Shown one piece after another: positions 16,969 to 31,596 of a DNA stretch of 64,000 bases (its first letter is position 1; every line of letters begins with the position of its first letter). Source of the stretch: a virus. Taxonomy: Duplodnaviria; Caudoviricetes. The stretch is taken from IMG/VR virus record IMGVR_UViG_3300007512_001664, positions 64,001 to 128,000 of that record; one strand, given 5' to 3'. The notes below the pieces were generated by a model, which searched no databases, had not been told where the DNA came from, and worked only from the letters and a program-made list of their open reading frames with translations. The position numbers and the translations under genes are program-made.

Positions 16969-17163
16969 ATGATCCAAGTAAGCTTACGTAAAGATGAGTC
17001 TATCGATAAAGCTCTTAAGAAGCTTAAAAAGAAATTAGATAGAGACAATATACTCAAAGAATGTCGAGATAGACGATATTTCGAAAAACCGTCAGCAAAA
17101 AAGAGACGTAAATTGAAAGAAGCTAAGTTCAAAGCTATGTTAGACGCACGTGATTTTGACTAA
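16969..17163 (+). CDS. rpsU: ribosomal protein bS21 (phage-encoded)
   Basis: ESIDKALKKLKKK...LKECRDRRYFEKPSAKKRRK bS21 signature, 64 aa. Confidence 0.93.
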   Translation: MIQVSLRKDESIDKALKKLKKKLDRDNILKECRDRRYFEKPSAKKRRKLKEAKFKAMLDARDFD

Positions 17164-26891: not shown

Positions 26892-27128
26892 AATTTAATA
26901 AACACGTATATGTTAGGAGAGCTGGAGGAATATCGTGATCGTCATAATCTATATGACATATGGAAAAACACGGAGAGACCTAAGCCTCGCTGGGAGCTCT
27001 TTACGAGAACCTTAATTGATAACCGATAATGAACCTATTTTTACAATTAGAGATAGATAAGTGGAAGTGGCGAATAAAAAGGCTTTTCGAGCCGGAAAGG
27101 TGTACGTGTTCAGTATGTTTAAAAAAAT

Positions 27129-27326
27129 ATGGCTAATAAATATTATACACAAATGGTAACATCTCGAGATATAAACGATGCGACGCAGACACGGTTCGTG
27201 CCGGGGAAAAAGCCGGATTTGCCGGATGAACGGCCGCCGGTATTTGCTGTATTTTTAATTCCTTTTATTTTATTGATAATAAAGATATGTGATCTATATT
27301 ATTGGATAACTTCCAGAAAAAAATAA
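27129..27326 (+). CDS. small membrane protein
   Basis: Hydrophobic VFAVFLIPFILLIIKI. Confidence 0.45.
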   Translation: MANKYYTQMVTSRDINDATQTRFVPGKKPDLPDERPPVFAVFLIPFILLIIKICDLYYWITSRKK

Positions 27327-27347
27327 TATTAGAATAAATAATAGTGT

Positions 27348-27860
27348 ATGGCATTCGAAGATAAAATTCTAAAAGAATCTAAGAGCAAACAAGCTAAGTT
27401 ATTGAGAGCTGCGAAGTTAGCTGCTAAGTCTCCTGATACAGGAGTTAAGATAGTAAAGAAGAGTGCTTATTACGTTATAAGAGACTGTGCTAAGATTACA
27501 GAACATTATCTCCCGCATTTTATATATTCACAAATAAAGAATCCTATTCAGATGTTAGAAGGGGTATTTACAAAGGCAGAATGCACAGATTTTCTTGGTA
27601 GAGCTAAAAAAGATTTAGTTACTAATCAATTACTAAATTTAATTATTTTAGATATAAAGAAACAAAATATACTAGAGTCAGCGACAACTGTTACACCTCC
27701 TAGTTTCGATGCTAGTGTATTTGATGAAGAAGATGAAGACGACATATATGGTGATTATGAGGCTGGTGGAGTAACTGCCGAAGCTGAACCAGAAGTAGTA
27801 GTTGAAGTTGAAAAAGACACATTACAATTGTTGTTAGATGCCTTCAAAGTTAAAAACTAA
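27348..27860 (+). CDS. late hypothetical protein, acidic C-terminus
   Basis: TAAATA 7 nt upstream; MAFEDKILKE|S. Confidence 0.6.
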   Translation: MAFEDKILKESKSKQAKLLRAAKLAAKSPDTGVKIVKKSAYYVIRDCAKITEHYLPHFIYSQIKNPIQMLEGVFTKAECTDFLGRAKKDLVTNQLLNLIILDIKKQNILESATTVTPPSFDASVFDEEDEDDIYGDYEAGGVTAEAEPEVVVEVEKDTLQLLLDAFKVKN

Positions 27861-28124
27861 AAGCGAATATAAGTGCCGGTATAATGAACTAGCTTGTCAA
27901 TTATTAGCTGGTAGTACTAATATGTATCAGTGTAAAACTGATCAAGAGCTTTCTGATTTAAATCAGAAATACATACAATTAGCTGAACAATTCATAAAAC
28001 GCATATCTTTACCCAAAAATTAGTAAAGAAAAAAAGTTGTATAAAAAGCTTGACGAAATCCCCGTTTTAGGATATCATATAGGGGTTCTTTGGTGATGTA
28101 GCCGGAGATTCAATAAAAATCAAT

Positions 28125-28577
28125 ATGTTTAAAAGCGTAGATATAATTAGGCGAGCTCTCCAAGAGCCGATAGACTTAATAAATGCGATAAACAATGATA
28201 ATAAACTACAAGGTTTATTAATTGAAAGTCAATTCTTTAAATTATTTGATGGAGAATTTACTAATTCTAATGGTTATGACGGTATTATAAACGGTAAAAA
28301 ATATGAAATAAAATTTACTAATTATGTAATGCCTAGTGGTTATTTAAGAATAAATTCATGTAATTATAATAAAAAAGGATTATTTGACTACATGACTGTT
28401 ATTGATGGTTTAAATGACATGGTATTTAGAGTGCCTCACGACGAGTGGTATGACCGTGGAGATTTTTCCGGATCAGAATTTCATTGGAGTAGTACGTACA
28501 ATAAATCTGATAAACAAAAAATAAGTAACACTAAATTACTTTTAGAATATCAAGTGTATCCGAAACAGGAAGCTTGA
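28125..28577 (+). CDS. putative PD-(D/E)xK nuclease-fold protein
   Basis: NGYDGIINGKKYEIKF (D...E-x-K). TTGACG-17-TATCAT promoter at 28050-28078. Confidence 0.5.
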   Translation: MFKSVDIIRRALQEPIDLINAINNDNKLQGLLIESQFFKLFDGEFTNSNGYDGIINGKKYEIKFTNYVMPSGYLRINSCNYNKKGLFDYMTVIDGLNDMVFRVPHDEWYDRGDFSGSEFHWSSTYNKSDKQKISNTKLLLEYQVYPKQEA

Positions 28578-28602
28578 CTGATTTATCATAAATACCTATA
28601 AT
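28574..28602 (+). promoter_or_regulatory. near-consensus sigma70 promoter
   Basis: TTGACT-17 nt-TATAAT. Confidence 0.8.
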
Positions 28603-28670
28603 AATGTCTGTTATGGCAATACGAATGCGAATTAAACAGAAGAATAAAGGATATCGGATAAGGGTATGGG

Positions 28671-28787
28671 ATGATGAAAAAACCAAGAGTCATAATAAGG
28701 TTCAATACAGGAACCAGAATACATCCTCCAAAAAGAGGTAAAGGGTCATATAATCGTAAAAAAAAATATAATGGCAGCAAAGATTAA
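28671..28787 (+). CDS. ArfA-like (alternative ribosome-rescue factor A) micro-protein, not in ORF track
   Basis: MMKKPRVIIRFNTGTRIHPPKRGKGSYNRKKKYNGSKD contains K-x-G-K-G-S-Y-x-R-K, as in E. coli ArfA KKGKGSYMRK. Confidence 0.55.
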   Translation: MMKKPRVIIRFNTGTRIHPPKRGKGSYNRKKKYNGSKD

Positions 28788-28936
28788 AAAACAACGAGTT
28801 TGGGAACGGATCCGGAAAGGTGTCAAGACACGTAAAACTGTGACTGTGACTAAACAACGAGTACCTCGACGAAAGAAGTGATTTCCAGAACAAAGTAGTT
28901 GATTAAATATTCAAGACAGTCTATAATAATGGAGTT

Positions 28937-29962
28937 ATGAGAGTTAACGATAGAAACGTAGCATTACAAGACATTAACGAACATTCGGCAATTGCGGTTG
29001 AGGGTGTTCATCAGATCTCAAGTAAAGATGAGCTTTATAGTAAAGCTGGTCTAGATTTCGAGGTAGAACAGGTCAATCTAGGTAAGGCCACTGGAAATGA
29101 GAATTTCGATAGGTTTTACGGATTGCGCAATAATAGGACCGGGCACGTATATGCTGTTACTGGTAAGAAGTACACTCCAATTCAGAATCATGAATTGATT
29201 GATGCATTTGACGAGGTTCGTAAAATGTACGGAGCAGATTATAAGGCTGCTGGTGTTATGCGCGGAGGTAGTCGAGTCTGGGTACAAGCTCAATTGCCGA
29301 AGGATTATACTTTCGAGATTCCTAATCGGAAGGGTGATAAGATTAATTCTATGCTTACCATGTTACTTGGTCATGACGGGATTATTTCAAATTGTATTTT
29401 CCCGACGTCGATGCGTGGTGCATGTAACAATCAGTTTGTAGCCATGACTAAGGAGTCTACACGTGATTATCGAATTCAGCATTATTCAAATTGGGGTGAT
29501 AGGTTGGATTTGGTTAAGTCAGTATTCGCTAAGAATATTAATAGTCTTAAAAACATGTACACTGATTTTGCTGCGCTTGATAGTAAAGCAATTTCTAAGA
29601 CCGAGCTTTATAACTTCTTGGGTGAGTTGTATCCGATGAAGGATGATGAAGATGAGAGGACTCTTAACAGGCATAACGACATTGCAGCGTTGTTCTCACG
29701 TGGTGCTGGTAATCTTGGTAAGTCACGCTGGGATGCATTTAATGCAGTGACCGAATATGTCGATCACCATCAGCATGCAACTCGAATGGCTAATGCCATT
29801 GAGAATAAGAATCACGAATATATTCAGAACCGAATTGGTAGTCTTAGCACTCCAGGAGGTCAGATGGATCGATTCAAGCGCCGGGCGTTGAACTTGCTGA
29901 CGACTACGGATAGGTTCCCAAAACCAGTCGTGAAGCAGGCGGAGCTTACAATAACAGCTTAA
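28937..29962 (+). CDS. DUF932/DUF945 family phage protein (TIGR03299-like)
   Basis: KYTPIQNHE, AAGVMRGGSRVW, LLGHDG, RGACNNQ, SRWDAFNAVTEYVDH. TTGATT-17-TATAAT promoter and GGAG RBS. Confidence 0.88.
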   Translation: MRVNDRNVALQDINEHSAIAVEGVHQISSKDELYSKAGLDFEVEQVNLGKATGNENFDRFYGLRNNRTGHVYAVTGKKYTPIQNHELIDAFDEVRKMYGADYKAAGVMRGGSRVWVQAQLPKDYTFEIPNRKGDKINSMLTMLLGHDGIISNCIFPTSMRGACNNQFVAMTKESTRDYRIQHYSNWGDRLDLVKSVFAKNINSLKNMYTDFAALDSKAISKTELYNFLGELYPMKDDEDERTLNRHNDIAALFSRGAGNLGKSRWDAFNAVTEYVDHHQHATRMANAIENKNHEYIQNRIGSLSTPGGQMDRFKRRALNLLTTTDRFPKPVVKQAELTITA

Positions 29963-30109
29963 GATTATAATGGGGTTAGGGATCCTCGGGAAACCGGGGA
30001 TTTCCTATCACCAAATCCTATAAAGGTTAGTAAAATTAAAAGGAGAGGCCCATTCGGAAACGCAGGAATTTAACGATTTGTAATATTGGAGATCTGACTA
30101 AATAATTAT

Positions 30110-30601
30110 ATGATCACGATTGATTTAACAGCTAAACCCCGAGTCAAGAGATGGCTGAAGGACAATAAAATCAATTTTAAAACATTACAAGCAACGGCTC
30201 AGATTTTTTTTAATCAAATTCAGCGTCGTAGTAAAGTAGACAGGCATTATAATTTAGAAGTTAAAACATGTCCGCATCATAGTAGTGGATATTATTTTGG
30301 ATTTAATGAGGTTCACGTTACTCAGCATTTGGATCAAAACGGTTGGAGTCAGGAGAAGAAATTTGATACATTTGCTGGCCATTTTCTTCATGAGTTTAGA
30401 CATTGGATACAGGATAATATGCTTAATGTAGCTGAACATCGATTAAATTATACTGATGAAGATAGTGAGAAAGAGAATGACAAGTATTATTACAATAAGT
30501 GGGAAGTTGATGCTCGAAAATTTGAGAGGATGTATAAAAAAGAATTTATAGATCTATATCACCTTCTTGATGGTTTAAACGAAAAGAAGCTTTTTTATTA
30601 A
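30110..30601 (+). CDS. putative zinc metallopeptidase (HExxH)
   Basis: FLHEFRHWIQ ... WEVDAR; TAAATA 5 nt upstream. Confidence 0.6.
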   Translation: MITIDLTAKPRVKRWLKDNKINFKTLQATAQIFFNQIQRRSKVDRHYNLEVKTCPHHSSGYYFGFNEVHVTQHLDQNGWSQEKKFDTFAGHFLHEFRHWIQDNMLNVAEHRLNYTDEDSEKENDKYYYNKWEVDARKFERMYKKEFIDLYHLLDGLNEKKLFY

Positions 30602-31596
30602 TGTATAAATTAGGAATTTTATTATTCGGTCAACCACGATATTATAGTATTGTTAAAAAATATTATGATGAAGCATTTTCAAACTGTGAAATAGATTACT
30701 TTATACATACTTGGAATGTTAACAGTGTCGTCGGTCGTAATCAAATACCTAGTAAGAGGGAAGATAATTACGACAACTTGATGGGCGTTCTTGGAGATAA
30801 GCTCTCCCAACATGTTGAGCCATTGACCTTTAAATATAATATAAATACGTTAAAGCACAGATTACAAAACATATACAACCCGTCATATATAGAAGTTAGT
30901 GATCATCAGAGACATTGCAAATGGATAAGTAAGTTAAACGATTTTCAACCACGTAAAGTAATTTCTTATCTGGGTCAATATGTAACGTTCTCAAGTAGTC
31001 CAAAAATAAAAAAATTAGAAAAGTATATTTTTAACAATGAACATGTACATCAATGGAGGTCGTTTGAGAGGGTTACTAAACTTTTAAAGCAGTCGGAAAA
31101 GGAATATGATTTGATGTTATGTGGTCGGTTTGATTTAATATTCGAACCAAAACCTGATATGGTTGAAAGACTGGTAGATTTAATCGAGAAGAATAAATCT
31201 GAGGATGATGAATTAATAGTATGTTCTATATCTGAAGAATCCAAAGATACATCTCTTAGCTCAATGTATGATTGGCTTTGGTTTGGGACCAAAAAAGGTA
31301 TGATTAGATTTGGTTATAATTTTACACGCAACCAAATAAACGATCCAAAACTGCCTGATAAAAATTATAGAGCAAGATGGGCTGATCAACTTAAATGGAA
31401 TAGAGTACCTGTTTATACAATGCCAGGGTCTCAATGGAATGAAACATGGGGACATGCAACGTTAATAAAGCCTTATTGTCCGGATTTTGATATTGATGCA
31501 ATAAAAAATTATAGCAAATATCATTCTCAAAATACACGTGGAGTGCTTAATAAGGTTGCACATCTAGAACAATATAACCCAGAAATTAAATATTAA
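30601..31596 (+). CDS. putative glycosyltransferase-like protein
   Basis: KLGILLFGQPR, DYFIHTW, YDLMLCGRFDL, DWLWFG resemble the K.A.l.sGq.R / D.fiHtW / YD.vir.RfD family. Confidence 0.55.
   Translation: MYKLGILLFGQPRYYSIVKKYYDEAFSNCEIDYFIHTWNVNSVVGRNQIPSKREDNYDNLMGVLGDKLSQHVEPLTFKYNINTLKHRLQNIYNPSYIEVSDHQRHCKWISKLNDFQPRKVISYLGQYVTFSSSPKIKKLEKYIFNNEHVHQWRSFERVTKLLKQSEKEYDLMLCGRFDLIFEPKPDMVERLVDLIEKNKSEDDELIVCSISEESKDTSLSSMYDWLWFGTKKGMIRFGYNFTRNQINDPKLPDKNYRARWADQLKWNRVPVYTMPGSQWNETWGHATLIKPYCPDFDIDAIKNYSKYHSQNTRGVLNKVAHLEQYNPEIKY

Follow-up and report, generated by a model that had tools for sequence, protein, structure and literature searches.

A small basic open reading frame (ORF) at 28671..28787 (+) is a real, selected protein-coding gene, and profile and alignment comparisons showed residues 15–38 of its product to be homologous to residues 27–50 of the ribosome rescue factor ArfA. 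The DNA analyzed (the window, 64,000 nt) comprises bases 64001–128000 of the complete 200,819-bp IMG/VR virus record of a marine phage, in which terminal repeats are present. The 38-aa product, which the initial annotation had reported as a basic protein with an ArfA-type motif, is present as claimed and contains ...RIHPPKRGKGSYNRKKK... The interpretation offered with it is supported in part. The preferred reading of the gene is a phage-encoded minimal ArfA-type factor that would recycle stalled ribosomes through a host release factor; on the sequence comparisons, this reading might equally prove right or wrong. The novelty of the locus itself is modest since it represents a previously uncalled member of a short ArfA-like family that annotation pipelines already label ArfA. 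The new details are a minidomain that is missing across the whole subfamily, a conserved overlapping upstream ORF, and an orphan 36-aa basic gene that is probably co-transcribed. The features of the locus are:

28574..28602, + strand: sigma-70-type promoter, TTGACT-17 nt-TATAAT, 11 of 12 consensus matches
28613..28741, + strand: upstream ORF, 42 codons long, −1 frame with respect to the ArfA-like ORF
28660..28664, + strand: Shine–Dalgarno-like AAGGG, 6 nt before the ATG at 28671 and 9 nt before the ATG at 28674
28671..28787, + strand: ArfA-like gene, 38 aa, own TAA stop, conserved in seven distinct sequences
28713..28784, + strand: ArfA-homologous segment (ArfA residues 27–50, the A-site and mRNA-tunnel part), from Pfam, BLASTP, and hhalign
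28731..28751, + strand: KRGKGSY core, within the ArfA-homologous segment
28771..28881, + strand: second tiny basic gene, 36 aa, overlapping the stop of the ArfA-like gene by 17 nt
28899..29962, + strand: DUF932 neighbor, with promoter TTGATT-17-TATAAT at 28899–28927 and gene at 28937–29962

The small gene and its expression signals

Related loci were fetched using the neighboring DUF932 gene as an anchor, which gave 11 viral loci, eight of which include the upstream region. A small ArfA-like ORF occupies the same place in seven of these eight, and the second ATG of the ORF (at 28674) is the start that is kept in the relatives, from which the product would be 37 aa long. Within the 28 codons shared by the seven distinct sequences, the numbers of variable sites at codon positions 1/2/3 are 7/6/21, and pairwise codon differences amount to 194 synonymous and 93 nonsynonymous changes in the ArfA-like frame, while the two remaining frames give 22:260 and 25:263. 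The variation at third positions and the synonymous excess, found in the ArfA-like frame only, indicate purifying selection on that frame. Nonsynonymous changes are concentrated in two places, the very C-terminal end and the “x” of GSYxR. On a 1.9-kb TARA Oceans contig, a 38-aa protein with 87% identity has been called, and the motif [KR]G[KR]GS[YFW] occurs only twice in a six-frame translation of the whole 200-kb genome.

The one locus with an upstream region that lacks the ArfA-like ORF (L010) has unrelated sequence where the promoter and the ArfA-like cassette would be (L010:3600–4000), and its DUF932 gene is 86% identical to that of the window. The presence of unrelated sequence at the cassette site of such a close relative indicates that the cassette is accessory within the phage group. 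Among the INPHARED phages, a blastn search with 27000–31000 gave no match, nor did a tblastn search with the 38-aa protein and the family members P0098 and P0019, which is insensitive for short basic queries with the low-complexity filter on.

Both expression signals named in the initial annotation, a near-perfect promoter and an AAGGG stretch resembling a ribosome binding site, were recovered from the sequence. The promoter at 28574–28602 is the best-scoring site within 27000–31000 and the sole exact match to TTGACT-17-TATAAT in the window, although at least one match was obtained in 13 of 100 shuffles. The conservation of the −35/−10 pair is stronger evidence for a promoter than this uniqueness: the −35 element, the spacer length, and the −10 element are kept in all seven related sequences (exact in six, TTGATT in the TARA contig). 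The site is probably a host-RNA-polymerase (early) promoter. The ribosome binding region is purine-rich but variable among the relatives, and AAGGG is missing in the TARA contig, in which the leader is deleted. Bacterial arfA is expressed from a non-stop mRNA (generated by an internal hairpin with RNase III or a terminator) and is thereby controlled by tmRNA. Such an arrangement is absent from the phage locus: the ArfA-like gene has its own TAA stop, a scan of 27000–31000 identified neither an arfA-type internal hairpin or terminator nor any terminator on the + strand, and the RNA fold of 28609–28900 has a z score of −0.41.

The start of the ArfA-like gene is overlapped by the upstream ORF at 28613, which is itself nearly leaderless, with an ATG ~10 nt past the −10 box. 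The ORF always stops at a TAA made by the Gly-Lys codons of the KGKGSY motif, and in six loci the distance from GTTATGGCA to the conserved ArfA-like ATG is exactly 61 nt, without a single indel or stop despite heavy divergence. The unique part of the ORF displays 43 synonymous to 161 nonsynonymous differences compared with 17:192 and 18:173 in the other frames, a weak coding signal, and in the overlap with the ArfA-like gene its frame displays a ratio of ~1:11, like noncoding sequence. Through an in-frame 54-bp deletion, the TARA relative has lost the bulk of the unique part but retains an intact, almost leaderless ArfA-like gene. The ORF has no Pfam or PHROG match, and the other ArfA-like loci that were inspected lack an upstream ORF of this type. 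It is probably a leader or regulatory ORF that is specific to this phage group and a candidate translational control element.

Among the outcomes that the initial annotation had listed as speaking against the gene is translation of the 28613 frame alone, which would make the ArfA-like frame a nongenic by-product. This is extremely improbable. Although the 28613 ORF is open, conserved in position, and begins near the 5′ end of the transcript in six loci, coding-type conservation within the overlap is limited to the ArfA-like frame, the ArfA-like ATG is invariant while the base that precedes it varies, the TARA relative retains the ArfA-like gene after losing most of the upstream one, and other family members stand alone. 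Fusion of the two frames by a programmed +1 frameshift, which would give a product the size of ArfA, was also considered and rejected, based on the invariant ATG, a short and nonconserved A-run at the junction, the deletion of the upstream part in the TARA relative, the stand-alone family members, and an upstream peptide that is unlike the N-terminus of ArfA.

Homology to the ArfA tail

The search with the ArfA profile HMM that had been proposed as a check was run, and it supports the relationship by E value and by profile–profile comparison but falls short of the Pfam cut-off. PF03889 matches residues 15–33 of the window protein at profile positions 25–43 of 44 (E = 2.9e-5) with 23.9 bits, below the gathering score of 25.5 bits, and a six-frame search of the genome gave E = 3.1e-5 and 21.9 bits. 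The profile matches all seven close family members (best E = 1.7e-6), and a Verrucomicrobiota homologue scores exactly 25.5 bits; no NCBIfam model matches any of the seven members. By BLASTP, 10 out of 18 residues are identical to E. coli ArfA 28–45. An hhalign comparison of a 29-member family alignment with 12 enterobacterial ArfAs gave a probability of 95.1% (E = 3.3e-8) over 27 columns and pairs T15–D38 of the phage protein with Q27–A53 of ArfA. When a family profile built from seven phage proteins was searched against all PDB sequences, the E. coli ArfA chains (5MGP, 7OJ0, 5H5U, 5MDV, and 5U4I) were the only single-stretch match (E ~0.01), aligning RvHkPkkGKGSYiRkKk with RVEKNKKGKGSYMRKGK at exact spacing over 17 residues; the top rank was held by a designed repeat protein whose score sums eight repeats, each of them insignificant.

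The matched part is the KGKGSY tail that occupies the empty mRNA channel in the solved ArfA–ribosome structures, in agreement with the initial annotation. Cryo-EM places His21–Glu30 of ArfA in the A site and residues 31–48 in the mRNA tunnel, and ArfA is active when truncated at Asn47 and inactive when truncated at Met40 (PMC5378476). By the BLASTP and hhalign alignments, the last residue of the phage protein corresponds to ArfA residue 50, and five basic residues follow the Tyr, indicating that the ribosome-sensing half is conserved and complete. The homology to this structurally defined tail argues strongly that the phage protein binds ribosomes.

Nothing in the phage protein aligns with ArfA residues 1–26 (Pfam positions 1–24 are unmatched and the hhalign alignment begins at Q27), indicating that the N-terminal RF2-activating minidomain (aa 2–20, including Ala18 and Leu19) is absent. 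In ArfA, this minidomain packs against helix alpha7 of RF2 and h69 and stabilizes the open, active form of RF2. Recruitment of a release factor (RF2) and rescue by the phage protein are suggested much more tentatively than ribosome binding because this minidomain is missing. A MAFFT alignment has the phage protein begin near ArfA residue 20, with six residues inserted, and pairs K-P-R-V-I with D-P-L-F-R (P5 with P23), with a conserved F/W at residue 11, a placement without statistical support. Pro23 of ArfA and the hydrophobic patch Leu24/Phe25 contact 16S A1492/93 and Trp319 of RF2. A complex prediction with E. coli RF2 and the family alignment gave a score of 0.02, which tells neither for nor against binding. 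AlphaFold2 modeling of the peptide with 29 relatives gave a mean pLDDT of 64 and no secondary structure, leaving a candidate beta-hairpin around NTG unsupported.

Family members, carriers, and neighboring genes

The homologue search used the 41-aa stop-to-stop frame as well as alignments. At E ≤ 0.1, the family profile retrieved at least 339 proteins of 35–72 aa from 5.8 billion sequences, with E values of 1e-18 to 1e-9 for the best of them. Common to these proteins is the signature (K)PRxx(V/I)x(F/W)NTGxR(V/I)HxPKKGKGSYxR, and the invariant residues R6, N12, T13, G14, R16, G23, G25, S26, Y27, and R29 are all present in the window protein. Many members carry a precomputed PF03889 match, JGI names several of them “stalled ribosome alternative rescue factor ArfA”, and NCBI names two 39-aa proteins from Verrucomicrobiota metagenome-assembled genomes (MAGs) “alternative ribosome rescue factor ArfA”. 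The description of the phage gene as unannotated thus holds for this record, in which it is uncalled, but not for its kind, given these database names and two papers with phage ArfA genes.

The genes for the two named MAG proteins lie in a syntenic chromosomal neighborhood (thioredoxin, T2SS-F, PSCyt/PSD1, and DUF1501). The gene was found in genome G001 and five of its nearest relatives (6 out of 41 genomes searched) and in 1 out of 201 genomes sampled across the Verrucomicrobiota phylum. Among 185,579 species genomes scanned with a sequence pattern, its presence was confirmed in five Verrucomicrobiota/Limisphaerales MAGs only, together with one Vibrio match to the motif half alone. The Verrucomicrobiota carriers also encode RF1- and RF2-sized proteins and an ArfB-sized RF-1 protein. 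Their chromosomal copies (L015:8121–8200 and L016:8121–8200) use GTG as the start codon, and a GC-rich hairpin with a T-run lies past their stop codons; this hairpin is an ordinary terminator and not an arfA-type hairpin inside the ORF. Five other contexts that were inspected are phage-like arrays of small genes, two with DUF932 and one with rIIB. Overall, most contexts inspected are phage-like, and one Limisphaerales/Verrucomicrobiota clade carries the gene on its chromosome. A gene kept vertically on the chromosome of this clade favors a useful cellular function over a purely anti-host one. As to the host of this phage, the Verrucomicrobiota homologues are a hint only.

The 17-nt overlap with the stop of the ArfA-like gene indicates that the 36-aa gene is probably co-transcribed and translationally coupled with it. 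This gene is restricted to the window, L002, and L004, where it forms a ~125-nt insertion relative to L005–L008; its differences from L002 and L004 are mostly synonymous, and it has one relative only among 1.84 billion representative proteins. In L005–L008, which lack the 36-aa gene, the final codons of the ArfA-like gene (...KKVVDKE) overlap the −35 element of the DUF932 promoter (AGTAGTTGAT...TATAAT), and in the window the same promoter lies after the 36-aa gene. DUF932 genes are located within ~1.5 kb of the ArfA-like gene in three phage lineages (the other two at L028:4722–5633 and L039:4615–5508), on the same strand in the window and divergent in L028 and L039. This proximity could reflect a shared early-region synteny or a functional link.

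Among other translation-related genes, the initial annotation had proposed a translation-support kit consisting of the ArfA-like gene, bS21, and tRNA-Cys. The bS21 gene is present at 16975–17127 (PF01165, 62 bits), but the tRNA-Cys was not found: ARAGORN and Rfam identified no tRNA in the window, in which Rfam found no family of any kind, and the whole genome has two tRNAs only, tRNA-Leu(taa) and tRNA-Thr(tgt), located at ~41.9 and ~46.0 kb in record coordinates, outside the window. The whole phage genome contains no tmRNA, and neither a phage-encoded RF-1 domain nor SmpB was found; without a release factor, SmpB, or tmRNA of its own, the phage depends on host factors for any activity of the protein. 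RegB was not found in the phage either, in a search run without a positive control. Elsewhere in the window (31813–57422, − strand), a single one of ten large, presumably structural proteins has a PHROG match (phrog_219, baseplate wedge subunit); the virion module is far removed from those of catalogued phages.

Possible functions and comparison with known systems

As a minimal ArfA-type factor, the peptide would be made early from the host-type promoter, and its basic tail (PKRGKGSYNRKKK...) would thread into the mRNA entry channel, which is empty after a ribosome has reached the 3′ end of an mRNA that was cut or truncated. Positioned in the A site, the peptide would aid a host release factor in hydrolyzing the peptidyl-tRNA, and the freed ribosomes would rejoin the pool for phage protein synthesis. 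Given the absence of the minidomain, the mode of any rescue would have to be closer to that of ArfT of Francisella tularensis, a stop-terminated protein of ~40 aa that recruits RF1 or RF2 to non-stop ribosomes (PMC6299226). By analogy, ArfT shows that 40 aa can suffice for the recruitment of a release factor.

Three other readings have to be considered. It is possible, if somewhat doubtful, that the protein fills the vacant channel with its ArfA-type tail and activates no release factor; it could compete with SmpB-tmRNA or ArfB, stopping the tagging and degradation of phage products, or otherwise modulate host ribosomes. Channel binding without rescue is consistent with the conservation of only the tunnel and A-site half of ArfA and the loss of the RF2-activating minidomain, and there are parallels in the A18T variant of E. 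coli ArfA, in which damage to the minidomain abolishes release while the binding of RF2 is retained (PMC5378476), and in the tails of SmpB, ArfB, and ArfA, which all enter the same channel (PMC6299226, PMC5378476). However, the invariant R6, N12-T13-G14, and R16 show that the first half of the protein is also strongly selected for something specific, a rescue blocker is not what one would expect a Verrucomicrobiota clade to maintain chromosomally, and the length of ArfT shows that so short a protein can be enough to recruit release factors. A further reading, which we consider unlikely, assigns the short FNTG-type proteins to a class of their own: rescue-site factors that are disseminated mainly by phages and that, after loss of the RF2-activating minidomain, would work in another mode, either ArfT-like recruitment of RF1/RF2 or blocking of SmpB-tmRNA, with gating of their synthesis by the upstream ORF in this phage group. 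Blocking SmpB-tmRNA would spare phage proteins made from cut mRNAs the tagging for degradation, and an upstream ORF that runs over the ArfA-like start and ends in the KGKGSY codons would replace the control by non-stop mRNA and tmRNA.

Finally, the protein might be a small basic nucleic-acid-binding protein that is unrelated to rescue and resembles KGKGSY by convergence or low complexity, which is quite improbable. The ArfA match is short (~19–27 residues), rich in lysine and glycine, and below the Pfam gathering score, and at E ≤ 10 the ArfA profile matches 10 out of 14 control genomes; at E ≤ 0.01, however, E. coli is the only one of the 14 that is matched, and the profile–profile comparison reaches 95%. 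The identity also covers nonbasic positions (R-V and G-x-G-S-Y-x-R) at exact spacing over 17 residues, and intermediate forms exist, such as g10 of phage RXM. The lack of a predicted fold, which would suit a nucleic-acid binder, is shared by ArfA, which is itself disordered off the ribosome.

A published survey restricts ArfA to the Gamma- and some of the Betaproteobacteria, assigns BrfA to the B. subtilis group, and lists ArfA in none of 211 PVC genomes (PMC11633108). In the present data, members of the truncated ArfA-like family abound in marine phages, and one Verrucomicrobiota clade has the gene fixed. If proteins of 35–50 aa perform rescue, infecting phages would provide ribosome recycling themselves at a time when the cell should be flooded with non-stop complexes from mRNAs cut by phage or defense nucleases, and an ArfA reduced to a form that lacks the RF2-activating minidomain would change the view of which parts the factor requires. 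If the proteins only plug the channel, they would represent a new kind of phage-made translation modulator.

Compared with E. coli ArfA (YhdL; PF03889; the five structures listed above), the phage protein is likewise small and basic, and it shares the RV-x-K-x-KKGKGSY-x-RK segment and a tail that extends past the equivalent of Asn47. It differs in being phage-borne, in its length (37–38 aa versus 72 aa, mature 52–55), in lacking the minidomain, and in ~six extra residues with the invariant NTG; moreover, with its own stop and no internal hairpin, the phage gene yields no tmRNA-controlled non-stop mRNA. The basic tails of B. subtilis BrfA, SmpB, and ArfB also probe the empty mRNA channel of non-stop ribosomes, but no sequence homology to them is detected or claimed, and ArfB has its own GGQ hydrolase domain whereas the phage encodes no RF-1 domain. 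ArfT, compared by description only, resembles the phage protein in size and in its basic tail (KKGGSTNKK) but shows no detectable match to the ArfA profile and is restricted, as far as known, to Francisella (PMC6299226).

Two phage proteins have previously been assigned to ArfA by Pfam or annotation: gp30 of Pelagibacter phage HTVC027P, which contains a PF03889 domain and is highly expressed 3 and 12–15 h post infection (PMC12753301), and g10 of Citromicrobium phage vB_CbaS-RXM, annotated as ArfA in GenBank (PMC8953757). Both are phage-borne and carry a (K/R)G(K/R)GS(Y/F)-x-R motif like the window protein but are longer (58 and 60 aa), with different N-terminal halves and without the FNTGxRVH signature. 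Translated from its accession, RXM g10 carries ...FRQRKVRPLKGRGSYTRKGR and keeps the canonical ...P-A-F-R-Q-R... junction, which by sequence makes it an intermediate form nearer to canonical ArfA. The short ArfAs of the Limisphaerales/Verrucomicrobiota and of marine metagenomes belong to the same subfamily as the window protein: the Verrucomicrobiota copies differ in being chromosomal, in the terminator after the stop, and in having no overlapping upstream ORF, but the proteins are of similar length (35–50 aa), carry the same signature, and are 50–87% identical to the window protein.
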